From NCBI GenBank assembly GCA_902773015.1, contig CACYCW010000190.1:1-33056 (forward strand): DNA of 33,056 nucleotides. Reading direction: 5' to 3'. Under the pieces are notes generated by a model. The model made no database searches. It was not told the origin of the DNA and saw nothing but the letters and a program-made list of their open reading frames with translations. Origin of the DNA: an uncultured bacterium (lineage in GTDB: Bacteria > Verrucomicrobiota > Kiritimatiellia > RFP12 > UBA1067). Position 1 is the stretch's first letter. Each line of letters begins with the position of its first letter. Below, in pieces: positions 11,887-30,036 of this stretch. Both the position numbers and the translations under genes were made by a program.

Positions 11887-14106
11887 ATGAATTCGAAAAT
11901 GTCGAGCCTGTTCCTGTCGCTTCTGGTCGCCACCTTGGCTGCCGTTTCGGGGTGGGCGAACGTGGTCATTGAGAATGACGCGTTTCGGCTGACGGTGGCG
12001 TCTAACGCGGTCGTTCGGTCACTGGTGGTGAAGGCGTCCGGCGAGGAGCTGCTCGATGCCGCGGCCGAGACTCCGCTCTTCTCGGTCACGCAGGAGCGAC
12101 CGTTCATCAACGAGGTGAAGCTCGCCTATCCGAACAAGCGCACCACGTTCCGCGCGAATCGAATCCGTCGCGAGGGCGATTCCCTCTTCGCCGGCTTCGA
12201 GCTCGCCCCTTACGAGGCGCGTATCGACCTGAAGGTCACACCGCACTACATCGCCTTCACGCTTGGCGGCTTCGTCGTGCCGCCGCATGCCCGCTACCAT
12301 GTGCTGCAGATGGATGCTCCGCCGGTCGAGTCATTCAGGCTCCTCCAGTTGCCGATCGTCCGCCGGCGCCACTTCGGCGACTGGCTCGACGTGATGTGGG
12401 ATGATTCAGCCGCCGTCGCCGTGGTCGCCGCCATGCCGGAGGCGCTGATCGACCATGAGCGTACCCTGCGCGGCGAGATGCTCGTCGCCGATGCCCAGCG
12501 CAAGGTCCGCCTGGAGGGGACGACGGCGGCCCTCGTTGCGACGCCGGCGAAGGGCTTCTTGAATGCGCTGGAGAAACTTGAGCACGACTTCAGCCTGCCG
12601 CCTGGCGTTGCGTTGCGTCGCTCGCCCGCGCTGCGCTCATCCATCGTGCGTGTCTTCGATCTCAATCCCCAGACGGTCGACGAGCACATCCGTTGGGCAC
12701 GGAAGGGCGGCTTCCGCCATCTTCAGGTCTACTACACGTCCATTGTGCGGGATGGCTATCCTGAGCCGCCGTACTGCCGCTGCGGCGACTACGACTATCG
12801 TCCCGAGTATCCCCGCGGCAGAGCGGATCTCGTGGCGATGCTCGCGAAGCTGAAGGCCGCCGGCATTGTCACGGGGCTGCATGTCCTGCCGCAGCACATC
12901 GGTCTCCGAAGCCGGTATGTGGTTCCCGTCGCGGACCGGCGTCTTCGCCTTAAGGATCATTTCACGCTGGCCCGTGCCCTCGCTGCGGACGCGTCCGGTG
13001 GCGAGCTTGTGGTGGACCAGGATCCGCGCGTGGCGCCGCGCCATCCCAAGTGCCGGGTTCTGCGCTTCGGCGGCGAGCTCATGACCTATGAGGACTGCGT
13101 GACGACGCGTCCCTACCGGTTCACGGGCGTCGTGCGGGGGGCGTTCGGCACGACCCCGGTCGCGCACGCGGTCGGCGAGATCGGCGGCGTCCTCGACATC
13201 AGCGAGTTTGGCGGCTCGAGCTGCTACGTTGATCAGGAGACCGACCTGCAGGACGAGATCAACGACAAGATCGCGGACATCTACTCCGCCGGTTTCGAGT
13301 TCGTCTACTTCGATGGCGCCGAGGGGGTCTCGCCGCCGTTCAACTTCCATGTCGGGAACGCCCAGTACCGCCTGTGGAAGAAGCTCGACCCGATGCCGAT
13401 CTTCGCCGAGGGCGCGGCGAAGACGCACTTCGGCTGGCACATGCTCTCGGGCGCGAATGCCTTCGACGCGTTTCCGCCGGAGGTCTTCAAGCGGAAGATC
13501 GACGAGCACCCCGCCGTCGAGGCGCCGCAGATGCTCGACAACTTCACGAAGGTGAACTTCGGCTGGTGGTATTTCTGTCAGCCGAACTCGAAGACCGTCG
13601 GCTGTCAGGTTGACATGTGGGAGTATGGCGCGAGCCGTGCGGCGGCTTGGGACTGTCCCCAGACGATCTCGCTCTTCTCATTGAAGCTCCTGGCTTCGCA
13701 CCCTCGCGCGGACGATCTCTACGAGATGCTGCGCCGCTGGGAGGACGTGCGCGCTAATCAGCTGCTCACGGAGGCCGAGAAAATGGAGCTTCGGGTCCTC
13801 GGTCGCGAACACCACCTCTACCTGAACGAGGCGGGGCGGTATGAGCTTCATGCGATAGAGATGCTGCCTGATGCGCCGAAGGCGCCCGACCTGAGGGGTT
13901 TCGTGTTCGAGCGCAACGGCCGTCGCGTCGTCGCCTACTGGCATGTGCGCGGCGCAGGCGAGGTGGAGGTCGCTCTCGAGGGCGGTGTGCGGCGGCTGAA
14001 GGTCGACCGCCTGCGCTACCTCGAGACGGACCTTCCCCTCCCGGCCGTGAGGCAGGCCTTCCGCGCGGCGGCCGTGAGCGTCATGCCGGTCGCCTTGCGG
14101 AAGTAG
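11887..14106 (+). CDS. Secreted hypothetical protein, probable glycoside hydrolase-like TIM barrel
   Basis: Signal peptide MNSKMSSLFLSLLVATLAAVSGWA, strong RBS and promoter. Barrel-like segments (KLKAAGIVTGLHV, GFEFVYFDGAEG, FAEGA). Family not assigned. Confidence 0.65.
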   Translation: MNSKMSSLFLSLLVATLAAVSGWANVVIENDAFRLTVASNAVVRSLVVKASGEELLDAAAETPLFSVTQERPFINEVKLAYPNKRTTFRANRIRREGDSLFAGFELAPYEARIDLKVTPHYIAFTLGGFVVPPHARYHVLQMDAPPVESFRLLQLPIVRRRHFGDWLDVMWDDSAAVAVVAAMPEALIDHERTLRGEMLVADAQRKVRLEGTTAALVATPAKGFLNALEKLEHDFSLPPGVALRRSPALRSSIVRVFDLNPQTVDEHIRWARKGGFRHLQVYYTSIVRDGYPEPPYCRCGDYDYRPEYPRGRADLVAMLAKLKAAGIVTGLHVLPQHIGLRSRYVVPVADRRLRLKDHFTLARALAADASGGELVVDQDPRVAPRHPKCRVLRFGGELMTYEDCVTTRPYRFTGVVRGAFGTTPVAHAVGEIGGVLDISEFGGSSCYVDQETDLQDEINDKIADIYSAGFEFVYFDGAEGVSPPFNFHVGNAQYRLWKKLDPMPIFAEGAAKTHFGWHMLSGANAFDAFPPEVFKRKIDEHPAVEAPQMLDNFTKVNFGWWYFCQPNSKTVGCQVDMWEYGASRAAAWDCPQTISLFSLKLLASHPRADDLYEMLRRWEDVRANQLLTEAEKMELRVLGREHHLYLNEAGRYELHAIEMLPDAPKAPDLRGFVFERNGRRVVAYWHVRGAGEVEVALEGGVRRLKVDRLRYLETDLPLPAVRQAFRAAAVSVMPVALRK

Positions 14107-15200
14107 CGGCAGAGGACGGGTAGCGAATTCCAGCCGCAGCGCTGGGCGATTGCCGTCATCGACGCTGTGCCTTGCGCGAGCAGGTTCTTCACGTTTTCCA
14201 GCCGCACGGACATGATCTCGTCCCGGATCGAGTGTCCCGTGACCTCCCGGAAGCGAATCTCCGCTAGACGGCGGGAGATCCGCATTTCGGCCGCGACGTC
14301 ATCGACGCCAAGGTGCTCCGCCGCGTGTGCGCGGATGAACTCGATGGCCCTCACGACCCGGCTGTCGTGCGCGGTGATTGGACAGGTGGAGGCGCGGCGA
14401 ATGACACAGAGCGGACCGAACAGTCCCTGCTCCGGCGCGCCGGATGGCTTGGACATTCGGCGATCCAGGATCGCCGCGGCCTGATAACCGCCGTGACTGT
14501 AGTCCGGCAGGATGCTCGACAGCTGCGGTCGGGAGTTCTCGCAGGTCGTTTCGTTGTTGTCCACGCCGATGACGGCGATGTCATCCGGTACGCGCAGGCC
14601 TGCCGCTCCTGCGGCGGCAATTACCTGGGCGCCGAGCTCGTCGTTTGCCGCAAAGACGGCGCACGGGCGCTTGACGGCGGTGAGGAAGGTCTTGAGGCGG
14701 CGTTGGAGGCGGATGAGATCGCGGCGTTCGCGCGGAAGCGGTTCGCAGAGCGCAGTGGTTCGTCCGTTGATGGCGAGCGCCGCGCGAAAACCCTCAAGCC
14801 TCCGTCTGCTCCAGTAGAGCGGTTCGAACCAGGCCACATAGGCATAGTTCGGGTAGTTCAGCGACTGCAGTTCCTTCGCGGCCATCTCGGCCGTCGCCCG
14901 AGAGTCATGCGTGACGCAGCACACATGGCGCTCGTCCTGCTTCGGGTGGCAGTCAAGATAGACGGCCGGCACCGTGCCGAGTGCCGCGCGATCAAAACGC
15001 TGCAGGTCGTCGATGTTTGCGATGATGCAGCCGTCTGGAGCCCAGAACCGGACGGCATCGGCGACGGATGGGATGTGCGTCGCATTTGGGATGATCCGGA
15101 GATTCCAGCCGTGCATCCGGGCATAGCGGTTGACGCCGTCGAATTCTCGGTGTTCTGACACCTCGTTGAAGGCCGATTGGAAAAGAAGAACCGTTCTCAC
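14016..15200 (-). CDS. XylR-type transcriptional regulator (LacI-like ligand-binding domain + C-terminal AraC HTH)
   Basis: GVNRYARMHGWNL, AVFAANDELG, LRVPDDIAVIGVDN, LSSILPD, VIRRAST, then AraC signature ISRRLAEIRFREVTG...IAQRCGW...YFRKATGMT. GTG start. Confidence 0.92.
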   Translation of the reverse strand: MRTVLLFQSAFNEVSEHREFDGVNRYARMHGWNLRIIPNATHIPSVADAVRFWAPDGCIIANIDDLQRFDRAALGTVPAVYLDCHPKQDERHVCCVTHDSRATAEMAAKELQSLNYPNYAYVAWFEPLYWSRRRLEGFRAALAINGRTTALCEPLPRERRDLIRLQRRLKTFLTAVKRPCAVFAANDELGAQVIAAAGAAGLRVPDDIAVIGVDNNETTCENSRPQLSSILPDYSHGGYQAAAILDRRMSKPSGAPEQGLFGPLCVIRRASTCPITAHDSRVVRAIEFIRAHAAEHLGVDDVAAEMRISRRLAEIRFREVTGHSIRDEIMSVRLENVKNLLAQGTASMTAIAQRCGWNSLPVLCRYFRKATGMTLTAAARKACLTAGRGRSVSR

Positions 15201-15207
15201 GTCGGAA

Positions 15208-15236
15208 ATTGTACCACACTTTTCGCCCTTCGTGAA
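15208..15236 (-). promoter_or_regulatory. Promoter of the XylR-type regulator (probably leaderless)
   Basis: Minus strand reads TTCACG-17 bp-TACAAT with a TG extension; the -10 ends 7 nt before GTG 15200; no SD. Confidence 0.65.
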
Positions 15237-15254
15237 GTGTAAAGATAATATTTT

Positions 15255-15294
15255 CGCAAAAGGTCAATTGCGGCAGTTGTCCCTGGTGTATAAT
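15255..15294 (+). promoter_or_regulatory. Divergent promoter of the 15332-23761 cluster, with candidate activator site
   Basis: Perfect TATAAT 15289-15294, no TGn extension and no properly spaced -35. AT-rich upstream region containing CGCAA-N8-TTGCG at 15255-15272. Confidence 0.55.
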
Positions 15295-15331
15295 CCTCAA
15301 CATCGCAAACCACATTAGGGATGTTCGAGAT

Positions 15332-16027
15332 ATGATTAAACGACTCCTCACGATGGCAATCGCCGCAGGGGCGATTTGGGCAGTCTTTGCCGCGCAGAGC
15401 CCAGAACTGCGGCTCTATTGCTCGTCAGAGCGCAATCTCACCTGGCAGACAATCGCCTCTGGCACGGTATACTTGGCACTGGTCTGGCCCGAAGGGGCGA
15501 CGGCGGCGGATGTTCTCGTCCGTGATGTCGACGGGCGGGCAACGGTGCGTGCGACAGGAATCACAGCCGGAACCGAATCCTATGCGTGGACGGTGTTCGA
15601 GGGCACCACACCGGCGGCGGACAACTGCTACCAGGTGAACGTGACATACCGATCCGGCAACGACCCGATCACGACTGACACAGCCGAGCTGGCGCTGCTG
15701 AGGGGCACCTTCGCGCCGATCAAGGTCAGTTGTGCCGACAGCGAGCGCGCGTTTGCCCGTACGAGGACAGGCCGCCCGATCGCCTTTGATGCGAGATGGT
15801 TCACGGACGGCGCGTCCGGTTTCTCGCTCACGGCGGAGAACCGCGCGACGGGCGTGCCGGTTGTCTTCGCGTCCGACGGCATGAGTAGCGGCTACTTCCG
15901 CTGGAACCCGCTGGAGGCGGACGCCGGTCGAGACTGGTTTGATATGACGCTTACGGCAGCGGGGATCGATCCGCTCATCGGTTCGGCCTACCTCAGCGTC
16001 GGTGGGGCGCTCTTGCTCGTTCGCTAA
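15332..16027 (+). CDS. Secreted hypothetical protein ending in a Gly-x-hydrophobic-Arg tail
   Basis: Signal peptide MIKRLLTMAIAAGAIWAVFA; beta-rich body; terminus SVGGALLLVR. Confidence 0.75.
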   Translation: MIKRLLTMAIAAGAIWAVFAAQSPELRLYCSSERNLTWQTIASGTVYLALVWPEGATAADVLVRDVDGRATVRATGITAGTESYAWTVFEGTTPAADNCYQVNVTYRSGNDPITTDTAELALLRGTFAPIKVSCADSERAFARTRTGRPIAFDARWFTDGASGFSLTAENRATGVPVVFASDGMSSGYFRWNPLEADAGRDWFDMTLTAAGIDPLIGSAYLSVGGALLLVR

Positions 16028-16043
16028 GTAAGGAGTCCTGAAC

Positions 16044-17396
16044 ATGAAGAAGAGCCTTCTGACCATTGTTCTCGCGACCGCAGCCATTTCTGCGCTCGCG
16101 ACGGCCACGATCGAGCAGCGGACCGTTCGCCAGCGCTGGCCGTTCTCGCGGACGGTTGACGTCGATTTCGTCCTGTCCTGCGATCCGTCCGAGACCTATG
16201 ACATCACGCCGCGCTTCTACGACGGTGAGACCGAGCTCACGGTGGAGGACGTCGCGATCTCTGGCGATTTCAATTCCGTCTCCGACGGTGCGCATCGTCT
16301 CACCATCGACCTCTCGCGCAGCTCCCTGGCCGGCACCGAGAGCTTCACGAACTTCCATGTGGAGCTTTCGGCTGTGGAGCCTCCGCTCTACATGATCGTC
16401 GATATGCGCAAGACCGGGGCGGACGCCAATCGTGTCTCCTACCTCACCCGCACCGACATCCTGAGCGGTCAGCATGGGACGTACGAGACGGACATGACTC
16501 GCCTGGGCATCTCGGGATGCATGCTTCGCAACCCGATCGTCTGGACGGGCTGCACCAATGACGCGCGCTTCGCCTCGTCGCACTTCTTGTTCCGTCGCAT
16601 CGAGCCGGGCGCATTCATCGCGGCGGGTTCCGGGGCATCCACCAACAACGTGTTCATCCACCATGCGTTCTGGCTCTCCGTGTTCGAGTTCACGCATGGG
16701 CAGTACAATACGATGGTGGACGGCAAGACACCGGGCATTCCCCTGACGCTGTCGGAGCGCCGTCCCCATTACAACTACAGCGCCTCGAGCATGCGCGGCT
16801 CTACCAATACGGTCACCGGGGTGAACTGGCCCGCGACCGGCTACGACAAGGTCGGCGGGCTGATTGCCACCTTCCGCAGCCGCACCGGAATCCGCTTCGA
16901 CCTCCCGACCGAGGCGCAATGGGAACTCGCCTATCGGGCGGGTACCGTCACGAAGTTCCACAACGGCTCGGATGACAACGCCGCGGCGGATCTGATCGGT
17001 CGCCACAGGGACAACGGCGGCTACTGGGACAATGGCGACGGAGTGAACGAGCCGAACTGGCATCCGTCCTACGACCAGCCGACGAATCCCGCCGAGGGCT
17101 ACGCACCTGTCGGCTACTACCGGCCGAATGCCTATGGCCTGTACGACATGTCGGGCAATATCGAGGAGGTGTGTCTCGACTGGCGCACGTCCGCATCGTC
17201 GGCTGCCCACCTCGGGGCCGATCCGTCCGGACCGCTACAGGCCGCTGCATCCAGCCTCCACCGCGTTGCCCGCGGCGGAAGCGCCTGGCATTCTCCTGCG
17301 GATACCGGCGTCACACAGCGACAGGGCGCCGGACAGGACGAGGCCAGCAGCCTCTACGGATGGCGTCTCGCGGTCATCGTCGAACCTACGCGATAG
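16044..17396 (+). CDS. Secreted FGE-sulfatase (SUMF1/EgtB/PvdO, C-type lectin fold) domain protein, paralog 1
   Basis: RBS AAGGAG, signal peptide, N-terminal RQRWPF..VDVDF, then FEFTHGQY, DLPTEAQWELAYRAG, PNAYGLYDMSGNIEEVCLDW, RVARGGS, GWRL. Confidence 0.88.
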   Translation: MKKSLLTIVLATAAISALATATIEQRTVRQRWPFSRTVDVDFVLSCDPSETYDITPRFYDGETELTVEDVAISGDFNSVSDGAHRLTIDLSRSSLAGTESFTNFHVELSAVEPPLYMIVDMRKTGADANRVSYLTRTDILSGQHGTYETDMTRLGISGCMLRNPIVWTGCTNDARFASSHFLFRRIEPGAFIAAGSGASTNNVFIHHAFWLSVFEFTHGQYNTMVDGKTPGIPLTLSERRPHYNYSASSMRGSTNTVTGVNWPATGYDKVGGLIATFRSRTGIRFDLPTEAQWELAYRAGTVTKFHNGSDDNAAADLIGRHRDNGGYWDNGDGVNEPNWHPSYDQPTNPAEGYAPVGYYRPNAYGLYDMSGNIEEVCLDWRTSASSAAHLGADPSGPLQAAASSLHRVARGGSAWHSPADTGVTQRQGAGQDEASSLYGWRLAVIVEPTR

Positions 17397-17419
17397 GATA
17401 GGGGAAAGGAACATCACCC

Positions 17420-18808
17420 ATGAAAAGACTTCTTACATTCGTCTTCCTGGCGACCCAGCTGACAGCGCTCGCCGACACCGACCGCGTCTCGCTCGTCTCC
17501 GCACGCCAGCGCTGGCCGTTCAGCCGTCTTGTGGACGTCTCCTACACCGTCTCGGGTGCGACTGATCCCGTTGACATCCGGGTTGCGATCATGAACGGGT
17601 CCGAGACGATTCCTGTGCCGGAGACGGCGATCGAGGGACAGCTCTATGACGTTGCCAATGGCGACCACACGCTTGTCATCGATCCGACGCGTTGCGGACT
17701 CGTCAATCGCGAGCTCCTCACGGCCGCCCGTTTCGAGGTGACGGTCGTCGATGCGCCGATCTACCTGATCGCCGACCTCCGGAAGGACAGTCTGTTGGGC
17801 GATGATCCCCGCCTTGTCTACCTGACCCGCGGCGACATCCGCACTGGGAACTACGGCACCTATGCGGAAGGCGATGACGTCGACTGGATCTCGAACTGTT
17901 CGCTGCCGTCGAAGTTCGTCTGGACCGGCGTCACCAACGACGTCACCTACTGCACCACGAACATGGTGTTCCGTCGCGTTGCGGCGGGCGCGTGCCGCAC
18001 GTACAATACGCTTGGCTTGATGTCGGCGACGAACAATCTCTTCATCACGCGTCCCTACTACGTCGCGGTCTTCGAGTTCACCGAGGCGCAGCGGCGGATG
18101 CTTGACGATTCCGGGCCGGCTAGTAGCTGGTGCGGCGGGCGCAAGCCCTACGGCAATGCCTCCTACGCGAGTTACCGCGGTGCGGCCAGCGAGACGCTCG
18201 ACTGGCCGTCGACCGGGCACGAGACCGTCGGCGGCTATGCGCTCAAGCTGCGCAACCGCATCGGACTCCAGGCGGATCTGCTCACGGCCGGACAGTGGAT
18301 TCTGGCCTACCGTGCCGGCACCGATACCGACTATTACCTTGGCACCGGCAACGGCACGACCGTGAACGGCACGAACTCGGTTGCCCACACGATTGGCCGC
18401 TATCAGTACAATGGCGGCTGGTCCTACGACGCCTCTGGCAATTTCAAGTGGCAGTGGAACACGGCGGCTGCGATGTCCGATCCGGCAACTGGCTGGGCGA
18501 CGCCGGGTCTCTATCTGCCCAATGCTTACGGACTCTACGACATGGCCGGCAGCGTTGACGAACTGGTGCTCGACTATTACGTGGCCTATTCGAGCAAGTA
18601 CGGCTACACCCGCATCGGGACGGATCCTGTCGGGCCGACGCAGGCGCAGAGCGCGGAGCTCGACTCCGGCAAGCGCGACGCGCTGGGCGGCAGCGGTTGG
18701 GCAGGATCGGGCTCGCTCAAGGCGACGAGCACGTCATCCATGTTGGATGGCTCTGCGAGCTCGAGCACGACGGGCACGCGATTCGGCATCTTCATTGATC
18801 ATCGGTAG
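17420..18808 (+). CDS. Secreted FGE-sulfatase domain protein, paralog 2
   Basis: Signal peptide, RQRWPFSRLVDVSY, WTGVTND, FEFTEAQ, DLLTAGQWILAYRAG, PNAYGLYDMAGSVDELVLDY, LGGSGW, GTRF. Confidence 0.85.
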   Translation: MKRLLTFVFLATQLTALADTDRVSLVSARQRWPFSRLVDVSYTVSGATDPVDIRVAIMNGSETIPVPETAIEGQLYDVANGDHTLVIDPTRCGLVNRELLTAARFEVTVVDAPIYLIADLRKDSLLGDDPRLVYLTRGDIRTGNYGTYAEGDDVDWISNCSLPSKFVWTGVTNDVTYCTTNMVFRRVAAGACRTYNTLGLMSATNNLFITRPYYVAVFEFTEAQRRMLDDSGPASSWCGGRKPYGNASYASYRGAASETLDWPSTGHETVGGYALKLRNRIGLQADLLTAGQWILAYRAGTDTDYYLGTGNGTTVNGTNSVAHTIGRYQYNGGWSYDASGNFKWQWNTAAAMSDPATGWATPGLYLPNAYGLYDMAGSVDELVLDYYVAYSSKYGYTRIGTDPVGPTQAQSAELDSGKRDALGGSGWAGSGSLKATSTSSMLDGSASSSTTGTRFGIFIDHR

Positions 18809-18818
18809 GTCCGGTCGT

Positions 18819-21602
18819 ATGAGACCCTTCGCCTCGCTGCCCGTCGCGCAAGTTGTAGCGCTGCTCGTGCTGGTTCTCGCTGCGGTCGTCGCATCGGCGG
18901 GATGCGAGTGTGTATTCGTTCTTCCCGATGGAGGCACGCGAATCGAATCGGCGGCGGTCACAGCCACACCGATTTTCTTTCTGCCGAAGTCAATGGGCTG
19001 CGCGCCATTCGCCGTCATGAATCAGGTTCCGCGCCACGGCGAGACTCCGTTTGGCATCCGCTCCCTGCTGGATGACCACCGTCAGGTCTTCGAGGGCTCG
19101 ACCTCCTATCGCTCCGACGGGAACGGGGAGGTGGTGGTGCGGCACCGGCTTGTCTGCGTGGCCGAGACGGAGGCAATGGGGCTCTACGCCACCTTCCCGC
19201 TCGCGGCCGGCGACTACGCCGGCGGCGGCATCGTGTTCGACGGACACGAACGGGTGGACCTTCCGGTCGAGCGCGGACGGTTGAAGGGCGGCCTCCATCG
19301 GGCGAAACGGGCGGTCGCGTTGGGGCCCGATGGACACGAACGTTTCTCGGTGCGGTTCGATTCGCCCCAGGATTTCGAGGTGAACGATTCCCGCTCCTGG
19401 GGCGGCCCCGGCTACGTCTTTCGCGTCCCCGCGATTCGGCGGAACCGTTTTCGCGCCGGCGAGACTAACGAAATCGCCTACACGCTTTCGACGCCTCGCG
19501 GACTGGATGTCCGCACGGGCCCCGTCCGCCTCGTCGCGGGCCGGGAGTGGGTCCCGCTCGTCCGGTTCTCCCCGTTTGTCGCTGCGAATTCCGCGCTGGA
19601 CTGGACCCATCTACGGCCGACTGGGGAGCCGGCGGGAAAGGACGGTCGGCTGCGGTGTGTTGGACAGAACTTCGAGTTCGAGCGGCGACCGGGCGAACGC
19701 GTGCGGTTCTACGGCGTCAACATCTGCGGCGACATGTGTTGGGCGTTGACCGATGACGAATGCGACGAGTTCGCGGCCAACTTGGCGCGCATCGGCTACA
19801 ACTCCCTGCGCATTCACCATCACGACGGCGGACTCGCGACGGGACCGGACCGCACAGAGCTCAACGCAGCGCGAATGCGGCGCCTGGATCGGCTGGTCAA
19901 GGCCTGCATCGATCGTGGACTCTACTTGACGACCGATCTCTACGTATCCCGTTCGCTCACCTACCGTCAGCTCGGCCTGGACCGGAACGGGCGGCCACCC
20001 TATGAGTCCATCAAGCCACTCTTCTACATCTGGGAGCCGGCGTTCTCCAACTTCCTCGCCTTCGCCCGCAATTTTCTCTCGCATGTGAACCCCCATACCG
20101 GCTGCCGCTACGCCGATGAGCCGGCGATGCCGCTCATCTCGCTTGTGAACGAGGGGTCGATCGGCATGGACGCCATGAGCGGAGTGAAGGACAACCCGGA
20201 GCTGTTTCGTCCCGCCTTCGAGCGCTGGCTCGCCGCCCGTGCCGAGCGGGATCCCGCCTACCGCGGCATTCGCGTCGATCCGTTCCCCGGCGAGATCTTC
20301 AACGGGAGAAGCCCCGAGACCCAGGCTCTGCTGCTGTTCTGCGGCGAACTGGAATATCGCTTCAATGCTCGGGTCACCCGGTTCCTGCGCGAGGAGCTTA
20401 GGGCGAAGTCGCTCCTCACCGACATGAACATCGACTACGATCCCGCCTGCTATGAACGGGTCCGGAACGAATTCCACGACTACGTCGACATGCATTTCTA
20501 CGTCGATCATCCAAGGTTCCCCGAGAAGGCCTGCTCCTTGCCGAGCTACCGCCTGAACGTCAGCTGTCTGAGCGACTATCGCGTGGGTCCAAAGACACGC
20601 GCGATGATGCGCCATCTTGACAAGCCGTTCTGCGTGACGGAATTCAACTTCTGTGGTCCGGCTCGGCTTCGCGCGCAGGGTGGCCTGGCAGTCGGGGCGG
20701 TGGCGGGTGTGCAGAACTGGGCGGGCGTGTGGCGCTTCGGGTGGTCGCATCACGCCAGCCGCCACCGCAACTGGGCGAAGGAGAGCATGGGCGGGTTCGA
20801 TCTCGTGACCGACCCGCTGAAGATCGCCGAGGACCGCGCAGGCCTGGCGCTCTTCGGCTTCGGACAGCTGCCCGAGGCGACCGAGACCACGGCCATCGTG
20901 CTGCCGCGCGATCGCCTAACGCGCTTCGATCGAAAGGGTGCGCGTTTCATCGACCGTATCGACCTCGCCTTTCTCCCCTACTTGCGCAAGATCGGCCTCG
21001 CGGTTGACGACGAGGCACCGCCCGGGGCGGAGACCCTGGGCGACTATGACACACCGTTCTTCCGATTCGGACGCGCGGACACGCGTCGCCGTTGGTATCC
21101 GGACGGCATTGTGCGCGGACCTCACCTCGAGCTTGACACCAACGCGGGGGCGCTCGCGGTGAACACGCCACTGACGGCGGGTGGCTTCGCCGAGAAGGGC
21201 GAGATCCGAGCCGGACCGTTCGCGGCGCGTCTTTCCGGCGGCCCGGCTGCCGTGTGGGCGAGCGCGATCGACCTCCGCCCCCTCACGACATCGCGGCGGA
21301 TTGTCGTCTTCCATCTGACCGAGCTGCAGAACTCGGAGTCGCTTTTCGCCGACATTGCCCTCTGCTATCTGCTTGAACGCGGCCATCTGCCTTATCTCGT
21401 CCGTGCCGGAACCGCCGCGCTCGAACTGGCGGTCGGCGATGGCGACTGGACGGTGCACGCGCTGGATTCTTCGGGCCGCCGTGTCCGCACGGTGACCTCC
21501 TCCTGCGTCGACGGAAAGCTGCGCTTCCTTGCCGATGTCTCGGCGGATCCGACGAACGCGACGTTTGTCTATGAGGCGGTGGCCGGGGAGAAGTCTCGGT
21601 GA
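18819..21602 (+). CDS. Secreted clan GH-A (GH5-like) glycoside hydrolase with extra N-terminal domain
   Basis: Hydrophobic signal after ATG 18819. RFYGVNIC, GYNSLRIHHHD, YLTTDL, ISLVNE (acid/base), YVDMHFYVDHP, FCVTEFN (nucleophile). Confidence 0.75.
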   Translation: MRPFASLPVAQVVALLVLVLAAVVASAGCECVFVLPDGGTRIESAAVTATPIFFLPKSMGCAPFAVMNQVPRHGETPFGIRSLLDDHRQVFEGSTSYRSDGNGEVVVRHRLVCVAETEAMGLYATFPLAAGDYAGGGIVFDGHERVDLPVERGRLKGGLHRAKRAVALGPDGHERFSVRFDSPQDFEVNDSRSWGGPGYVFRVPAIRRNRFRAGETNEIAYTLSTPRGLDVRTGPVRLVAGREWVPLVRFSPFVAANSALDWTHLRPTGEPAGKDGRLRCVGQNFEFERRPGERVRFYGVNICGDMCWALTDDECDEFAANLARIGYNSLRIHHHDGGLATGPDRTELNAARMRRLDRLVKACIDRGLYLTTDLYVSRSLTYRQLGLDRNGRPPYESIKPLFYIWEPAFSNFLAFARNFLSHVNPHTGCRYADEPAMPLISLVNEGSIGMDAMSGVKDNPELFRPAFERWLAARAERDPAYRGIRVDPFPGEIFNGRSPETQALLLFCGELEYRFNARVTRFLREELRAKSLLTDMNIDYDPACYERVRNEFHDYVDMHFYVDHPRFPEKACSLPSYRLNVSCLSDYRVGPKTRAMMRHLDKPFCVTEFNFCGPARLRAQGGLAVGAVAGVQNWAGVWRFGWSHHASRHRNWAKESMGGFDLVTDPLKIAEDRAGLALFGFGQLPEATETTAIVLPRDRLTRFDRKGARFIDRIDLAFLPYLRKIGLAVDDEAPPGAETLGDYDTPFFRFGRADTRRRWYPDGIVRGPHLELDTNAGALAVNTPLTAGGFAEKGEIRAGPFAARLSGGPAAVWASAIDLRPLTTSRRIVVFHLTELQNSESLFADIALCYLLERGHLPYLVRAGTAALELAVGDGDWTVHALDSSGRRVRTVTSSCVDGKLRFLADVSADPTNATFVYEAVAGEKSR

Positions 21603-23761
21603 CGACCGCGCTGGCGATTCTGGCGGCGGCGACGCTGACCGCATTCAACGACGGCTGGGAGGTGCGTCGGGAAGGGGAGACCGGCTGGCAGCGGGTAACG
21701 CTGCCGCATGACGCCGCGTTCGACCGTGGCTATGTGCGGGCGGAGGACGCCGACCAGGGCTACGTGAGCTGTCCGGTGACGACTTACCGCAAGACCTTTG
21801 TGCGGCCAGCAGGCGACGGTCGGCTGGCCTTGCGCTTTGACGGCGTCTACATGGACTCCATGGTCGCCCTTAACGGCCGTTGCGTCGGCGGCCGCCGCAA
21901 CGGCTACCTGCCGTTTGAGGTGTCGCTGGACGGAATGGCGGCGACGAATGTCCTCGAGGTGACGTGCGATGCCCGCACGCCCAACGCGCGCTGGTATCAG
22001 GGCTGCGGGATCCTGCGCGACGTGTGGCTTGTTCACCGCCGGGGATGGACGCTTGAACCCGAGGCCGTCGCCGTCACGACCGAACTTCGGGCGGACGGCT
22101 CTGCCGTTGTGCGTGTCCGTGCCGAGGGCGCGCGCGTCATCTCCCCGGTCGGCGGGGAGCAGATCGTCGGCCATCCCGCGCTCTGGTCGCCCGAGGTGCC
22201 GAACCTGCAGGAGATCGTCGTCACGGCGGAGAACCCCGAAGGCGAGCGCGACACCCTGACGGTTCGCTACGGCATCCGCGCGCTCACGTTTACCCTCGAC
22301 CGCGGGCTTCTGCTGAATGGAAAGCCTTATCGTCTCAAGGGCATTTGCCTGCACGAGACGTTCGGGGCGCTTGGCGCAGCCTTCTGCCGCGCGGCGACGC
22401 GGCGCGAGCTCGTCACGTTGAAGGACCTCGGCGTCAATGCGATCCGGACGGTCCACAATCCGTTCGCCCCCGCCTTCTACGACCTGTGCGACGAGCTCGG
22501 ATTCCTCGTGATGGACGAGGCGTTCGACGAGTGGCGAATTCCGAAGACGGCCCACGGCATTTCGCGCTTCTTCGATGCGTGCTGGACGAACGACCTTCGC
22601 ACGCTCGTGCGCCGGGATCGCAATCATCCGTGCGTCGCGCTGTGGTCGATTGGCAACGAGATTCCGGATCATCGTCAGGGAGTGGACGCGGGGAGCCTTG
22701 TGCGGGCGATGGTCGATGTCGTGCATGCGCTCGACCGTACGCGTCCGGTCACCGCCGCGCTCGACCATCCGGACAGCGCGTTCACCAACGGGGTGATGGC
22801 TGCGCTGGATGTCGTCGGCCTCAACTACAACGTAGGCTGGTTCGCACGTCTTCGCGGTCTGAAGCCGGTGCTGGGTTCCGAGACCGCCCCGTCGCTCGCT
22901 GATCGCGACACCTATCTCTTCGAGGAGCGGAACGGGCGGATGGTGCCCGTCCAGTCTCGCAATCATCGCGAGTGCGCCTATTCGCCGAAGGCGTTCACCT
23001 GGGCCGACCCGGCCGAGGTCGCTCTGCGGACGCAGGTCGACTCGCCCTGGAGCGCAGGCGAGTTCGTCTGGTGCTCCTACGACTATCTCGGCGAGCCCAA
23101 TCATCTCGGGGCTGCGCCCGGCCGACGCAACTACTGGCCGGCGCGCAGCTCGTACTGGGGACTCTGCGATCTCGCCGGTCTCCCCAAGGATCGCTACTAC
23201 CTCTACCGCAGCCGCTGGAACGAGCGCGTGCCAACCGTCCACCTGATGCCCGACTGGACCTGGCCCGGACATGAGGGGCGGCTGTTCCCGGTCTGGTGCT
23301 ACACGAACGCCGAGGAGGCGGAACTTTTCCTGAACGGACGTTCCCATGGTGTGCGCCGTCCAGCCGCCACGAAGGATCTCCACCTCTTCTGGGAGGTCCC
23401 CTACGATCCCGGCATACTCGAGGTGCGCGCGAGGATGAAGGATGGTACGGTCGTGACAGACCGCCGCGTGACGTCCGGGTCGGTCGCCGCTCTTCGCGTG
23501 ACGCGGCTCTTCGAGTCGGATGAACTCGCCTTCTTCCGCTGTGATGCCGTTGACGCGGCTGGTCATCGCGTCCTGGCCTGCGAGGATCGCATTCAAGCCC
23601 TGGCGAACGGCGGCGACCTGCTGGCGCTTGACAATGGCGATCCGCTCGACCACGAGCGCTTTCGATCATCGACGCGGCGGCTGTTCCGCGGTTCGCTGGT
23701 GGCGATTGTCCGTCGTCGTTCGTCCGATTGCTCGCTCCGCTGCGACTTCACGGCGAAGTGA
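21599..23761 (+). CDS. GH2 beta-galactosidase-like glycoside hydrolase
   Basis: GTGA overlap; LRFDGVYM, RWYQGCGILRDV, LKGICLH, GVNAIRTVHNP, RDRNHPCVALWSIGNE, GSE, WCSYDYLGEP, VWCYTNAEEAELFLNG. Confidence 0.93.
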   Translation: MTTALAILAAATLTAFNDGWEVRREGETGWQRVTLPHDAAFDRGYVRAEDADQGYVSCPVTTYRKTFVRPAGDGRLALRFDGVYMDSMVALNGRCVGGRRNGYLPFEVSLDGMAATNVLEVTCDARTPNARWYQGCGILRDVWLVHRRGWTLEPEAVAVTTELRADGSAVVRVRAEGARVISPVGGEQIVGHPALWSPEVPNLQEIVVTAENPEGERDTLTVRYGIRALTFTLDRGLLLNGKPYRLKGICLHETFGALGAAFCRAATRRELVTLKDLGVNAIRTVHNPFAPAFYDLCDELGFLVMDEAFDEWRIPKTAHGISRFFDACWTNDLRTLVRRDRNHPCVALWSIGNEIPDHRQGVDAGSLVRAMVDVVHALDRTRPVTAALDHPDSAFTNGVMAALDVVGLNYNVGWFARLRGLKPVLGSETAPSLADRDTYLFEERNGRMVPVQSRNHRECAYSPKAFTWADPAEVALRTQVDSPWSAGEFVWCSYDYLGEPNHLGAAPGRRNYWPARSSYWGLCDLAGLPKDRYYLYRSRWNERVPTVHLMPDWTWPGHEGRLFPVWCYTNAEEAELFLNGRSHGVRRPAATKDLHLFWEVPYDPGILEVRARMKDGTVVTDRRVTSGSVAALRVTRLFESDELAFFRCDAVDAAGHRVLACEDRIQALANGGDLLALDNGDPLDHERFRSSTRRLFRGSLVAIVRRRSSDCSLRCDFTAK

Positions 23762-23775
23762 AATCGTCGCGCAAC

Positions 23776-23804
23776 TTGCGTGATGGTGGAGCGTGTGATA
23801 TAAT
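23776..23804 (+). promoter_or_regulatory. Sigma70-type promoter
   Basis: TTGCGT 23776-23781, 17-bp spacer, TGaTATAAT (-10 at 23799-23804). Confidence 0.7.
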
Positions 23805-23845
23805 GTCGGACATGAAACTCAACTGGTAGGCTCGTGACTCGGAAA

Positions 23846-26812
23846 ATGAAATACGGTTTCGTCCTGGCGGCCTTCGCCGTCGTGTACGGTCTTGTTGCCT
23901 CCGCTGCGGTCGATCTTTCAGGCGTCTGGAAGGCCTCGGGCGAGGGCATCGCCGGCGAGGTGCGCTTCCCCGGCACGCTCGCGCAGGCGCATCTCGGCAA
24001 GCATTGGACCGAGACGGACTTCAAGAACTCGATGGATCTCGAGCAGTCAGAGGCGCTCGCCCAGGAGTATCAGTACGAGGGCCTCGTCGTCTACGCGCGC
24101 GAGATCGAACTCTCTGAAGCTGACTGCCAACATGACGCCGAGATCTTTATGGAGCGCGTGATGTGGAAGAGCGAGGCGTGGTTCGACGGCGAACGACTCG
24201 GCGAGCGCGATTCGCTTGCGACGCCTCACGTCTATCCCGTGCCCCGACGGCTGCTGACGCCAGGACGGCACACACTCAGGATCGCGATTGACAACTCGCG
24301 TCGCTATGGATTCTCCCGTCAGGCCCATTCGTACGGACCGAGCATGCAGGCGATCTGGAACGGCGTCCTGGGAAGGTTCGAACTCCGCCGCGCCCATCCG
24401 CTCCGATCTGTCCGCGTGTTCGCCCCGTGGCCCGCGAACGGAAAATTCGAGTTTGAAACCGCGGCGGATGTGGCCGACGTCGTCCTGCGCGGGCCGGAGG
24501 GTCTGAAGGTCGACGGCTTCGTGCGGATCGGCGGACGCTACGTGGTTCGAGTCGATGGTTCCCCCAAGCCCTGGAACGAGTTCGCCCCGACGCGCTATAC
24601 GCTGTTGCTCAAGGCGCGCGATGGCTTCGAGCGGGCTGTCAGTTTCGGCTTCCGCACCGTCGGCACGCGTGGACACGCCCTCACCATCAACGGTTCCGAC
24701 ATCTTTATCCGCGGCAATGTGGATAACGCGAACTTCGCCAAGGACGGTCTGCCGTGGATGACGGTTGCAGAGTGGAATCGCATCTTCTTTCTGCTCAAGA
24801 ACGAGGACGGCGTGAACGCCATTCGCTTCCACTCCTGGTGCCCTCCCGCTGCAGCGTTCGAGGCGGCGGACGAAATCGGCGTCTTCCTGCAGCCGGAGGC
24901 GGGGATCTGGACTGACCGATGGATGCAGAATGCGGACGAGGTGGGCAACGGCAAGGCGGTGGACCTCTTCGTCCAGCGCGAGTTGAAGGCGATCGCCGAC
25001 GCCTATGGCGATTCGCCATCGTTCATTTCGCTTTCGATCGGCAATGAGCTCGGCAACTCTAATTTCGAGACCATGGGGCGCTGGATAGGCGAGATGAAAA
25101 GGTACGACCCGCGGCATCTCTACTACTGCTGCTCGGCGCGCACGGTTGCGAAAGAGGATGACTTCGCGCTCTCCCATCAGATCCATGACGTCGGACTCGC
25201 GCGTGAACGTCTTTTCCCAAAGACAGACTGGGATTATGAGGACGTCTACTCCAAGTCGACCGTTCCCACCATCGCGCACGAGATCGGGCAGTGGCCGGTC
25301 TATCCGATTTGGCAGGAGCTGCTGCCAAAGTTCACGGGGATGATGCGCCCGTGGAACATTTCGCGCCACTACGACACGGCGGTGCGGCGCAACGCGCTTC
25401 GTTTCACCAACGAATACCATGCGGCATCGGCGAGGCTCAACCGGATCATCTACAAGGAGGAGGTGGAGAGCTTTCTCCGGACGCCTTCCTGCGCAGGGTT
25501 GCAGCTTCTGAACATCCAGGACTACACGGGACAGGCCGAGGCGCTCATTGGCTGGCGTGATCCGTTCTACGACCTGAAGAGCGGTTTCCGCGACCTGCCG
25601 CCGTTCCGGACGGTGTGGGGCCCGGTCTCGCCCCTCGCCAGGTTCGCGAAGTTCTCGTGGACGGTCGGAGAGACATTCCGTGCGACGCTCGAGGTGCGCA
25701 ACCTGACGGATGCGCCGCTTCTCGTCGGCACGAAAATGCCGTATTCCATCGCCGGGCAGAGCGGCATCCTCAAGATCCCCTCGGACATCGCACCGGGACA
25801 TGTCGGGTTTGTCGGCGAGGTTTCGCTTCCGCTCACGGCGGAAATGACGAAGGCGAAGCAGTCGCTGACCTTGGGCAGGAACAGCTGGAGTTTCTGGGTG
25901 TTTCCGGCCGAAGGGAAGTGCGCATGGCCGTCGGGGGTCATTGCCACCGCCGACGCAGGTGCGGCGAAGCTGGCGGTTCGCGAGGGAAAGACCGTGCTCT
26001 ACACCGGCTTCACGCGACGGTCTGCGAAAGGGACCTTCAAGCCCGTCTACTGGAGCGCGCGGTGGTTCCCCGTGGACAACACGGTGCGCGCGGCGCTTGG
26101 TACGTGGTTTGACGTGAAGCATCCGGTCTTCGGCGGATTCGTCACCGAGGACTTCACCGACTGGCAGTGGTATCCACTCGCCGAGGGCGGAATCGTCCAC
26201 GCGCTCGAGGGCTTCTCGGCGGGGTACCGTCCGTTCGCGCTGTCGGTGAACGACTTCCACTATTCCGAGTTCGCCGCGCCGATGTACGAGGTACTCTGTG
26301 GCCGCGGACGGCTCTTCGTCTGCGGCTACGATCTCGAACGGGATGATCCCGCCGTACGCCGGCTACGTGCGTGCCTCGCGGCGTATCTTGCGGGTCCCGC
26401 CGCGGAGGGAACGCCGCGGGTGGACGACACCTGGCTTGAGCGGACGTTCGAGCTTCATCCGCAGGAGGATCTCTCCGGCCTCATCTACGACGTGACGACG
26501 AACTGGACGGGTTCGGCGTTTTCGGCGACGCTCACCGGTTTCGCGCCGGTGACGGGCAAGGTATGCGTCGACCTTCATCAGCCCGTCGGCGGCATGATGG
26601 TCGCTCGCGGTTTCCTCGAGGGCCGGGTCTTCGACGTGCCGACGCTGACGTGCAAGGGGCAGACGACCGTCGTTTCACTGCCGATCATCCGTGAGGACAT
26701 GCTGGACGGGCGGCTGGAGCTTTCGATCAACCTCATGTTCGGCAAGGGCATGTCCGTCGACCGCATCCGCATCATCGACGGGCAGAAGACAGAACAACAG
26801 ACCTCTGATTGA
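23846..26812 (+). CDS. GH2-like glycoside hydrolase (secreted)
   Basis: Signal MKYGFVLAAFAVVYGLVASA (GTG 23834 is an alternative start); DSLATPH, WNGVLG, FGFR, GVNAIRFHSWCPP, SIGNEL, IAHEIGQW, LLNIQDYTGQ. Confidence 0.85.
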   Translation: MKYGFVLAAFAVVYGLVASAAVDLSGVWKASGEGIAGEVRFPGTLAQAHLGKHWTETDFKNSMDLEQSEALAQEYQYEGLVVYAREIELSEADCQHDAEIFMERVMWKSEAWFDGERLGERDSLATPHVYPVPRRLLTPGRHTLRIAIDNSRRYGFSRQAHSYGPSMQAIWNGVLGRFELRRAHPLRSVRVFAPWPANGKFEFETAADVADVVLRGPEGLKVDGFVRIGGRYVVRVDGSPKPWNEFAPTRYTLLLKARDGFERAVSFGFRTVGTRGHALTINGSDIFIRGNVDNANFAKDGLPWMTVAEWNRIFFLLKNEDGVNAIRFHSWCPPAAAFEAADEIGVFLQPEAGIWTDRWMQNADEVGNGKAVDLFVQRELKAIADAYGDSPSFISLSIGNELGNSNFETMGRWIGEMKRYDPRHLYYCCSARTVAKEDDFALSHQIHDVGLARERLFPKTDWDYEDVYSKSTVPTIAHEIGQWPVYPIWQELLPKFTGMMRPWNISRHYDTAVRRNALRFTNEYHAASARLNRIIYKEEVESFLRTPSCAGLQLLNIQDYTGQAEALIGWRDPFYDLKSGFRDLPPFRTVWGPVSPLARFAKFSWTVGETFRATLEVRNLTDAPLLVGTKMPYSIAGQSGILKIPSDIAPGHVGFVGEVSLPLTAEMTKAKQSLTLGRNSWSFWVFPAEGKCAWPSGVIATADAGAAKLAVREGKTVLYTGFTRRSAKGTFKPVYWSARWFPVDNTVRAALGTWFDVKHPVFGGFVTEDFTDWQWYPLAEGGIVHALEGFSAGYRPFALSVNDFHYSEFAAPMYEVLCGRGRLFVCGYDLERDDPAVRRLRACLAAYLAGPAAEGTPRVDDTWLERTFELHPQEDLSGLIYDVTTNWTGSAFSATLTGFAPVTGKVCVDLHQPVGGMMVARGFLEGRVFDVPTLTCKGQTTVVSLPIIREDMLDGRLELSINLMFGKGMSVDRIRIIDGQKTEQQTSD

Positions 26813-26832
26813 CTGACGATTAGGGTGTCCCG

Positions 26833-26885
26833 TTGCCTTTGGCGCGGAGATTATGATAAAATACCCGAGAACTCAGGACAAGGAG
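26833..26885 (+). promoter_or_regulatory. Promoter and RBS of the esterase gene
   Basis: TTGCCT 26833-26838, 18-bp spacer, TGaTAAAAT (-10 at 26857-26862), AAGGAG 26880-26885. Confidence 0.6.
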
Positions 26886-26898
26886 TGAATTGCGGATC

Positions 26899-29316: not shown

Positions 29317-30035
29317 TACTGGCGAACTCACTCATAAACGGCTTTCTTGGCTCGAACCTCACCGGCAAGGTCCTCGTCTGCATCCAGCTCGGCGGCTCGG
29401 TGCTGATGGTGATGACTATCCTCGGCAAGTGGAAGGCCCTCGCGTCCGTCTTCTCGAAGACGCGACGTTTCCTCCATGACTTCGCCACGTGCCACGATGT
29501 CCTCGAATACTACGTGCAGCGGCGGCCGAACGCCGTCTACGGGCTCGAGTGGATCTACAAGGAGACGTGCGAACGCCTGCTGAAGATGCTCCGGCCAGAC
29601 GTGCGTTCGCTCCTCGTCGGGAACCAGACGGACGGCAACGGCGCAGCGGCGCTCACGGCGCGCGAAGTCGAGCTCGTGCGGGGCACCTGCGAGCATGCGC
29701 TCGACGAGGAGGAGATCCGCATCGAGCGCGGCATGGCGTTCATCGCCACCATCGTCGCCCTGGAGCCGATGGTCGGCCTGCTCGGCACGGTGTGGGGCGT
29801 CCTCGACGCATTCGCCGAGATGGGCACGGCCGGCAGCGCCAACCTCGCGACGATCGCGCCGTCCATCTCCGCCGCGCTCGTTACGACCGTCGTCGGCCTC
29901 TTGATTGCAATTCCCGGCCTCGTCTGCTTCAACATGATGAACGCCAAGCTCCGCGGCATCACGAGCGACATGGAGGGCTTCTCGGACGAGCTGATGGGGC
30001 GCATCGCGTGCGAGTTCCAGGGAAAGGGCGCCTGA
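29313..30035 (+). CDS. MotA/TolQ/ExbB proton channel family protein
   Basis: ATGA overlap with rnhC, AGGAG upstream; IATIVALEPMVGLLGTVWGV, IAPSISAALVTTVVGLLIAIP. Confidence 0.92.
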   Translation: MILANSLINGFLGSNLTGKVLVCIQLGGSVLMVMTILGKWKALASVFSKTRRFLHDFATCHDVLEYYVQRRPNAVYGLEWIYKETCERLLKMLRPDVRSLLVGNQTDGNGAAALTAREVELVRGTCEHALDEEEIRIERGMAFIATIVALEPMVGLLGTVWGVLDAFAEMGTAGSANLATIAPSISAALVTTVVGLLIAIPGLVCFNMMNAKLRGITSDMEGFSDELMGRIACEFQGKGA

Positions 30036-30036
30036 G

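Follow-up and report, generated by a model that had tools for sequence, protein, structure and literature searches.

In the polysaccharide utilization loci (PULs) of the Bacteroidota, the genes for the binding proteins SusD and SusE/F precede those for the hydrolases, a sugar-responsive regulator governs the locus, and control by extracytoplasmic function (ECF) sigma factors and their anti-sigma factors also occurs in such loci. The Treponema denticola variable protein 1 (TvpA; PDB 2y3c) is a secreted, noncatalytic, ligand-binding protein with a C-type-lectin fold of the formylglycine-generating enzyme (FGE) type, and PorK, GldK, and GldJ of type IX secretion and gliding in the Bacteroidota are noncatalytic envelope lipoproteins of the FGE fold that act via a partner protein. 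Here, we analyze a 33,056-nucleotide (nt) stretch of DNA (the window; contig CACYCW010000190.1 of assembly GCA_902773015.1) from an uncultured bacterium of the Kiritimatiellia, in which three forward-strand genes, B (15332-16027), C (16044-17396), and D (17420-18808), stand ahead of predicted hydrolase genes. B encodes a 231-amino-acid (aa) protein with a signal-peptide-like N terminus and the C terminus GGALLLVR, whereas C and D carry the FGE-type domain PF03781 (1.1e-20 and 1.3e-06, respectively). The reading that we favor, with chances that we judge to be about even, is that B, C, and D together constitute an extracytoplasmic recognition module and that this module heads a hydrolase operon under sugar control in a Kiritimatiellia bacterium of the ruminant gut. 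The observations that carry it are the linkage of the two kinds of genes, a natural fusion between them, the loss of catalytic residues, the near-absence of sulfatases, the fold, and the hydrolase neighborhood. The module probably binds or senses a substrate rather than modifying sulfatases, and the best-supported account of its role is ligand recognition, through capture and, in some loci, through sensing.

The window is one contig (C190) of a 2.24-Mb metagenome-assembled genome (MAG) of 250 contigs with ∼65% G+C, and all genome-wide negative results given below refer to this assembly, which is 85% complete. The module is seen three times in this genome, each time ahead of large secreted proteins. 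On contig C12 (locus L001), two FGE-domain genes lie behind the gene for a 212-aa protein and ahead of one for a 1,588-aa DUF4838 protein, and on contig C151 (L002), one FGE-domain gene lies behind a GntR/PBP regulator and a 235-261-aa protein. The three small proteins end in GGALLLVR, PGFMLLFR, and GGAVMIVR. The genome has exactly five FGE-domain (PF03781) genes, and all of them are in these modules.

The comparison was extended to 41 related genomes, to a wider even draw of 201 genomes of the class, and to gene surroundings (20 contexts and 77 public loci) in which genes were called by a crude GC3-GC2 scorer; this scorer is unreliable at low GC, and the poorly called low-GC loci among L053-L129 were left out of the counts. 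In the 41 relatives, a profile of B-like proteins matched 21 places, and in 16 of these an FGE-like match followed the B-like gene on the same strand at a distance of no more than 150 nt. The other five comprised one place split by a transposase (L037), one at a distance of 3.5 kb, one at a contig edge, and two without an FGE-like match on the contig. In L037 (G029:C2, ∼131.0-132.2 kb), the B-like gene and its FGE-like partner are separated by an inserted DDE_3 transposase gene. With C as the query, FGE-like matches at 1e-10 were present in 30 of the 41 related genomes; one genome (G006) had 32 of them, often in tandem. The arrays of G006 (L041, L042, and L044) are interspersed with genes for 67-145-aa proteins that consist of little beyond a signal peptide and a tail (..SGAIITIR, ..LGLNIIIR, and ..AGFTVIVR) and that the B-like profile does not detect.

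Among the well-called loci, a small tailed protein is often encoded directly ahead of one to three FGE-like genes and a large protein. The closest parallel to the window was found in a 99%-complete genome of another family (L038), where a divergent XylR-type regulator is followed by a 211-218-aa tailed protein, two FGE-like paralogs, a 1,027-aa GH42-like protein, and a 735-aa protein. The locus arrangement is real, and it is beyond chance because it recurs in the window's genome and in relatives. Tandem FGE-like copies were sisters in 6 of 6 pairs with 100% support (100/99 at the C/D node), so the pairs either arise repeatedly or evolve in concert; a positional orthology of "first" and "second" copies is thereby ruled out. 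The original prediction for this locus, that the three leading genes form an undescribed extracellular glycan-capture or scaffolding module in place of the Sus binding proteins, is partly supported. Its claim of an undescribed conserved module is borne out by the linkage in 16 of 21 places, the fusion, the recurrence, and the lack of a description in the literature searched, but there is no fixed triplet; instead, the unit that recurs is a B-like gene with one to three FGE-like genes, the second copy arising locus by locus. What is conserved, judged from sequence, is a B-like gene together with at least one noncatalytic FGE-fold gene, and this unit represents an undescribed, lineage-restricted extracytoplasmic module joined to hydrolase operons. 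The literature that was searched held nothing on the module or on its tail, although the supplements of a 2026 preprint on Kiritimatiellia (10.64898/2026.10.06.756941) may name these families.

C and D are tandem paralogs of the same architecture (38% identity, E = 1e-86), and both score over the 23.3-bit cutoff of PF03781. Their signal peptides, MKKSLLTIVLATAAISALATA in C and MKRLLTFVFLATQLTALADT in D, are of the Sec type and contain no cysteine, which means that there is no lipobox; two FGE-domain proteins with signal peptides had been predicted here, and this is what we find. An AlphaFold2 (AF2) model of C, built from a 35-sequence alignment (predicted local distance difference test [pLDDT] score, 83.6; predicted template modeling score, 0.85), shows an N-terminal beta-sandwich (N-domain) followed by the FGE fold. 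TvpA is the top match of C both by sequence (4e-8) and by structure in Foldseek (4.8e-13; template modeling [TM] score, 0.63 on the target), and the further Foldseek matches are solved FGEs at ∼1e-10 to 1e-11, PvdO, and, far weaker, PorK. The catalytic copper-binding cysteine pair (C-x4-C) of true FGEs sits just after the motif RGGS. At this motif, the sequence is RGGSAWHSPADTG... in C and LGGSGWAGSGS... in D, and the following 30 residues are free of cysteine in both proteins. The HMMER alignments to solved FGEs end at RGGS, and C-x4-C spacing after the motif is present in only 1 of 35 family members. Column entropy is high at residues 406 to 435, and of the fully occupied parts of the family alignment, the stretch after RGGS is one of the most variable. 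As for possible clients, the sulfatase family PF00884 has a single partial match of 33.7 bits in the genome and none in the locus. Because no cysteine follows RGGS and sulfatases are nearly absent, C and D are, as far as these data reach, not formylglycine-generating enzymes.

FGE-like domains also occur in other settings in relatives (L150-L163; G012, G015, G016, G027, G028, G040, and others), namely, inside giant secreted proteins of 1,000 to 2,500 aa that also carry LRR_5, Flg_new, PATR, CBM_4_9, BACON, CHB_HEX_C_1, Peptidase_M60, Peptidase_S8, or beta-helix domains. In one case (L161), a Ser/Thr kinase with Sel1 repeats bears an outer FGE-like domain.

B itself matched no Pfam or NCBIfam family, and a word-based homologue search with B alone recovered only B. 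It is homologous to the 212-aa small protein of L001 (E = 2e-9). The B-like profile, built from 8 B-like proteins, was run against 1.84 billion cluster representatives and matched 651 of them (434 at ≤1e-10 and 114 at ≤1e-30), mostly 205 to 230 aa in length. In all members scanned, the B-like part was without a Pfam or NCBIfam family. The family is largely free-standing; for instance, 140 of the 150 top representatives are shorter than 300 aa. An ESM Atlas search with one B-like protein (P0001) was uninformative, the best score (0.81) being to a "hypothetical protein" cluster. According to the labels of the public contigs, members occur in Kiritimatiellia and Lentisphaeria/Victivallales MAGs from rumen and gut. 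In the even draw of 201 genomes, only 6 had B-like matches, the window's own among them, and all fall into the window's family (4 of 6 genomes, leaving the window's own aside) or a second family within that order. The B-like proteins are, by all profiles applied, an unannotated protein family. An origin of B as a duplicate of the N-domain found in C and D was considered and rejected, since B and C showed no similarity to each other.

The two kinds of proteins are joined in P0080, a single chain of 640 aa that contains a signal peptide, an N-domain, an FGE-like domain, and a B-like domain with the tail. Other representatives carry the B-like domain at the end of an AXE1 esterase (P0034), in a Ser/Thr kinase with leucine-rich repeats (P0085), or behind sigma-70 regions (P0013 and P0109). 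Given these fusions, the B-like and FGE-like domains are likely to be partners, whether physically or functionally. In three loci, the B-like domain is part of a signaling-type protein. In L053 (41-1876), a FecR-domain protein with a C-terminal B-like domain and tail is encoded directly upstream of an FGE-like gene. In L057 (3543-5881), a protein of the same makeup is followed by FGE-like, GH42-like, and beta-helix genes, and an ECF sigma gene overlaps the start of its gene. In L034 (10347-11911), which is from the window's genus, an ECF sigma gene is followed by the gene for an anti-sigma-like protein of 331 aa that contains a B-like domain and gave no FecR match, an FGE-like gene, and a gene for a 1,370-aa MGH1-like glycoside hydrolase (GH). 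These fusions and gene orders show that the module can be wired to signaling in some loci. The placement of the B-like domain in anti-sigma-like proteins, two of them beside ECF sigma factors, means that the module may sense as well as capture, and these loci favor sensing no less than capture.

The tail of B (16001-16024, forward strand) consists of a glycine, five hydrophobic residues, and a terminal arginine. The logo of 150 family representatives has the same form, with G at position -7 in 128, five hydrophobic residues next, and R or K as the last residue in 129. The tail is not peculiar to B: it ends 29 open reading frames (ORFs) in the window's genome compared to 2.6 expected from shuffled controls and is therefore a proteome-wide tag. 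The ORFs that bear it (for example, C157:11448-14669, C44:3908-7618, and C21:3047-4840) mostly encode 800-1,370-aa PATR-repeat or LamG proteins; a scan of 20 large ones gave 10 with PATR repeats, 3 with LamG, 1 with Flg_new_2, 1 with a weak DUF1565 match, and 5 without a match. In L035, L047, and L033, the large protein downstream of the module bears the same kind of tail, and the four downstream proteins of the window (E to H, below) do not. The sorting-domain models of NCBIfam matched none of 16 proteins (13 tail-bearing ORFs of the genome and 3 family representatives). The genome has a single exosortase (EpsH-family) gene (G000:C122:9630-10487; PF09721, 2.4e-50), and such a gene is also present in 39 of the 41 relatives. 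Canonical PEP-CTERM-like C termini were sought in the same genome, and all 11 regular-expression matches were apparently spurious. An exosortase-family enzyme might handle the short tail, which may be a new kind of sorting signal.

Downstream of D, on the same strand, lie E (18819-21602; 927 aa, ATG start at 18819), F (21599-23761; GTG start), G (23834-26812; 992 aa), and H (26890-28188). When rederived, the gene order, the coordinates, and the spacing came out as first described: B-C, C-D, and D-E are separated by 16, 23, and 10 nt, and the stop of E and the GTG start of F share 4 nt (21599-21602). The F-G and G-H gaps are 72 and 77 nt. An AAGGAG precedes the ATG of C in the B-C gap. Divergent from the operon, on the reverse strand, is the regulator gene (14016-15200), whose product has the XylR architecture that had been assigned to it, a Peripla_BP_3 domain (5e-28, residues 111 to 272) followed by the AraC-type HTH_18 (7e-14, residues 303 to 378). 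Its best NCBIfam matches, the RbsR, FtrA, and GntR models at ∼50 bits, were all under their cutoffs, and no equivalog was reached. The 131-nt divergent intergenic region (15201-15331) is the presumed control region; a sigma-70-like site within it (15236-15208, reverse strand) faces the regulator gene, and no consensus sigma-70-like site for B was found within these 131 nt. G and H had been given promoters of their own, and the promoter scan agreed for H, which has a sigma-70-like site ahead of it at 26833-26862, but showed no such site ahead of G. As had also been claimed for this island, the SusC, SusD, TonB-receptor, ABC, MFS, and sulfatase families of Pfam and NCBIfam matched none of the eight proteins encoded in 14016-28188.

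Of the enzymes, F is a GH2 protein (Glyco_hydro_2_C, 2.7e-28, and also Glyco_hydro_2_N, DUF4982, and Glyco_hydro2_C5), and it resembles a beta-galactosidase in matching the GalB model at 2.2e-159, under the cutoff of that model. G, which is without a Pfam match, is GH2-like; it matches PDB 8u01_A, a GH2-family protein, at 1.3e-97 and the NCBIfam model of the BT4151-type exo-beta-1,4-galactosidase at 6e-129, again under the cutoff. H is a CE15-type glucuronoyl esterase (PF22244 GCE_fung, 1.7e-27; 97.2 bits compared to a cutoff of 27). These results bear out the families first given for F, G, and H. E is less clear. It has a possible lipoprotein signal (..ASAGC) and no sequence relative in the PDB, and its weak GH5-type match, to PF00150 (E = 0.0033, residues 292 to 374), scores 17.4 bits compared to a cutoff of 23.5. 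Its look-alikes in the ESM Atlas are ∼900-aa hypothetical proteins of Lentisphaerota and Verrucomicrobiota, and PF00150 occurs in 11% of one cluster. The label "clan GH-A" that E had received is thus tentative, resting on a subthreshold match and an Atlas lead, and we describe E as a probable uncharacterized TIM-barrel hydrolase. No homology was found between E and the 1,027-aa protein that occupies its place in L038, which means that the hydrolases behind the module are not conserved and the module alone is.

A scan of neighboring genes (69 of 87 listed neighbors, plus those of L001, L002, and the window) covered 24 loci. GH-, carbohydrate esterase (CE)-, or lyase-type Pfam domains were next to the module in 10 of them, a raw count from genomes rich in carbohydrate-active enzymes (CAZymes); the types were GH2, GH16, GH42, GH89, GH109, MGH1-like, beta-helix, BNR_2, SASA, GDSL, and CE15. 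DUF4838 was beside the module in 4 loci, so that glycoside-hydrolase-type or DUF4838 genes together account for 14 of 24, and LamG, F5/8-C, or FAD-oxidoreductase types were found in 3. The predicted association with CAZymes stands to the extent that the module is usually beside hydrolase genes, with the reservation that these are raw counts in CAZyme-rich genomes. Regulators with sugar-binding domains flank six loci, of the XylR type in the window, L038, and L049 and of the GntR/PBP type in L002, L048, and L050; in L038 and L049, divergent regulators of the same XylR architecture as in the window precede the module.

The locus is not confined to one sample. Near-identical copies were present in bovine and goat gut metagenomes, with at least half of the sampled words found in 17 runs and the locus held at least in part by 20 runs from 12 studies. 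In a bovine metatranscriptome (run X18; runs X19 and X20 are probably DNA), short contigs covered portions of C, D, E, and G as well as the junction between G and H.

From these observations, a mechanism can be proposed. The ligand that C and D would bind is most likely the glycan on which the downstream enzymes act, and these enzymes resemble beta-galactosidases and a glucuronoyl esterase. B would be an adaptor of two beta-sandwiches that binds the FGE-like proteins and whose G-(five hydrophobic)-R tail may anchor it to the cell envelope; such tethering would keep the lectins, and hence the substrate, near the cell. In the sister loci, where the B-like domain is the outer part of the anti-sigma-like protein, the pair would report the ligand to the ECF sigma factor. 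A broader proposal, possible but in our judgment clearly less probable than the reading of the window itself, is that gut Kiritimatiellia and at least one MAG labeled Lentisphaerae possess an unrecognized two-part extracytoplasmic recognition system. It would consist of a degenerate FGE-fold lectin and a dedicated B-like adaptor. The adaptor would be free, with a very short exosortase-type C-terminal tag as its tether, or else form a built-in part of FecR-type anti-sigma factors, kinases, or enzymes. If this were true, the two-part system would serve a lineage free of SusC and SusD as SusD-type binding and SusC/anti-sigma signaling serve the Bacteroidota, and the "paradox" of many FGE genes in strict anaerobes would be explained.

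Several observations weigh against a recognition module of this kind. The AF2 model of B has a mean pLDDT of 59; residues 27 to 126 form an FN3-like sandwich (Z score, 8.3), followed by a second strand-rich part, and such a fold match is generic. In addition, the window's B is a divergent member that lacks several of the residues conserved in its family. About half of the well-called loci with N-domain FGE-like proteins have no B-like or tailed gene upstream, which means that the lectin-like proteins can work without B. In the neighbor scan, 3 of the 24 loci had only phosphoesterases beside the module and 4 had nothing recognizable. No contig of the bovine metatranscriptome bridges two genes. 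Finally, FGE-fold domains are also known to bind peptides, as in true FGE, or proteins, as in PorK-PorN, and the ligand could accordingly be a protein.

This last point leads to one of the rival explanations, that C and D bind proteins rather than glycans and serve as accessories of envelope assembly, anchoring, or secretion, with B, the downstream enzymes, or the tail-bearing proteins as clients. PorK, GldK, and GldJ, which form envelope complexes together with their partners, would be the model. The weak NCBIfam GldK and GldJ matches of C and D (9.6e-12 and 1.2e-4, far under the cutoff), the PorK structures listed by Foldseek (9mzu at 3e-8; TM score, 0.32), the extended peptide bound by true FGE, and the large tailed protein downstream in L035, L047, and L033 would all suit such a role. 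We nevertheless regard it as improbable. The PorK match is much weaker than those to TvpA and FGE, a lipobox cysteine is absent from the signal peptides of both C and D, and E, F, G, and H are without the tail; moreover, there are 5 FGE-like genes compared to 29 tail-bearing ORFs in the genome, and linkage is seen only for the three B-like ones. Somewhat less improbable, though still unlikely, is that the pair is chiefly a sensor, the FGE-like protein detecting a ligand outside the cell or in the periplasm and signaling via the B-like domain, with free B as a decoy or modulator. The gene orders described above speak for sensing, both in L057 and L034 (ECF sigma factor, FecR or anti-sigma-like protein with a B-like domain, FGE-like gene, and GH-type gene) and in L053 (FecR protein bearing a B-like domain, with an FGE-like gene next), as do the fusions of the B-like domain to a Ser/Thr kinase (P0085) and to sigma-70 regions (P0013 and P0109) and the kinase with an outer FGE-like domain (L161). 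The window's B, on the other hand, starts with a signal peptide of its own and has neither a membrane-spanning nor a cytoplasmic part; the regulator of the locus is a XylR-type protein of the cytoplasm; and free-standing members dominate the family, 140 of the 150 top representatives being shorter than 300 aa. The B-like end of the esterase P0034 also fits an adaptor or anchor better than a sensor.

Two further explanations address C and D alone. They could be working FGEs or related oxidative enzymes of the SUMF1/EgtB/PvdO family that mature a client protein, which is the sense given to such genes by annotation and by a recent synteny survey. PF03781 is matched over threshold, and the preprint mentioned above (10.64898/2026.10.06.756941) places "formylglycine-generating enzymes" among the auxiliary families colocalized with CAZyme clusters in Kiritimatiellia and takes these colocalized FGEs as sulfatase activators. 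In C and D, the C-x4-C pair is missing, the alignments to solved FGEs stop at RGGS, and the signal peptides are of the Sec type, whereas a partial sulfatase-family match outside the locus is all that the genome offers as a client. FGE also needs O2, and the lineage is probably anaerobic given the [FeFe]-hydrogenase gene in L002. Together, these points leave very little room for catalysis of this type. C and D could also be targets of a diversity-generating retroelement, as TvpA is, because TvpA is the top match in sequence and structure and the stretch near the C terminus is variable. The assembly contains no template-repeat-like copy of the 3′ ends of C and D (the longest nonself match at E < 0.01 was 58 nt with 76% identity), and the genome has no match to the reverse transcriptase family RVT_1. 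With neither found, a retroelement is the least probable of the explanations considered and hardly credible. A recognition module built from noncatalytic FGE-fold lectins and a B-like partner is thus the reading that we retain.

Other features of the window lie to either side of the locus. A 739-aa secreted protein without a family match (11887-14106) converges on the regulator, the two frames overlapping by 91 nt at their 3′ ends. It is preceded by a large secreted papain-family (C1) peptidase (8916-11792) with a "Lectin_like" domain (2.5e-38), a weak DUF1565 match, and a choice-of-anchor Q domain; this peptidase lacks the G-(five hydrophobic)-R tail and ends instead in ..GASAYFLRPTVR. Farther upstream is a 1,292-aa fusion (5030-8908) of an alpha-amylase catalytic domain with the glycogen-debranching domains GDE_N and GDE_C. 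Just 3′ of the island, 29391-31353 encodes ExbB (MotA_ExbB, 1.2e-29), ExbD (5.8e-22), and a Pro/Lys-rich, TonB-like ORF of 298 aa. Despite these ExbB/ExbD/TonB-like genes, neither the TonB-dependent receptor barrel (PF00593) nor SusD (PF07980) had a match in the genome.

Among the glycan degraders of ruminant and other guts, Kiritimatiellia are common, and the module is a concrete candidate for binding or sensing that does without SusC and SusD. What is new is an unannotated family (651 cluster representatives) tightly linked to noncatalytic FGE-fold proteins. The findings also correct what is likely a systematic misannotation, in which "formylglycine-generating enzymes" are read as sulfatase activators in genomes with almost no sulfatases. 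The noncatalytic reading also offers an answer to the puzzle of O2-dependent "FGE" genes in strict anaerobes. In two Kiritimatiellales strains that are strict anaerobes, PF03781 genes were reported to number 20 and 11 (van Vliet et al., 2019; PMC6388578); that paper discusses the O2 requirement of FGE, calls this abundance paradoxical, and proposes inactivity or an "alternate function."

Compared to the described systems, the module shares features with several. With FGE (SUMF1, PF03781), C and D have the Pfam domain and the fold in common, but they lack the catalytic cysteine pair, are secreted, come from a probable anaerobe, and are encoded in a genome that offers almost no sulfatase clients. 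TvpA is closer in being secreted and noncatalytic; unlike TvpA, C and D add an N-terminal beta-sandwich, occur as tandem paralogs, and stand in a hydrolase operon behind a B-like gene, in a genome without a template repeat or a reverse transcriptase match. The likeness to PorK, GldK, and GldJ is more distant, as C and D score 44.9 and 21.5 bits with the GldK model compared to its cutoff of 350, have no lipobox, and give TM scores of ∼0.3 with PorK. The tail resembles the PEP-CTERM/exosortase system in being a C-terminal tag on many secreted surface-type proteins, often with PG or GG, then a hydrophobic run and a basic end, but its run of five residues is too short to span a membrane and it has a single basic residue. 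With PULs there is no relation in sequence or fold, and no SusC, TonB-dependent barrel, or SusD match in the genome; the likeness is one of layout, with binding-type genes ahead of the hydrolases, a sugar-type regulator, and, in some sister loci, an ECF sigma factor with a FecR-type anti-sigma factor.

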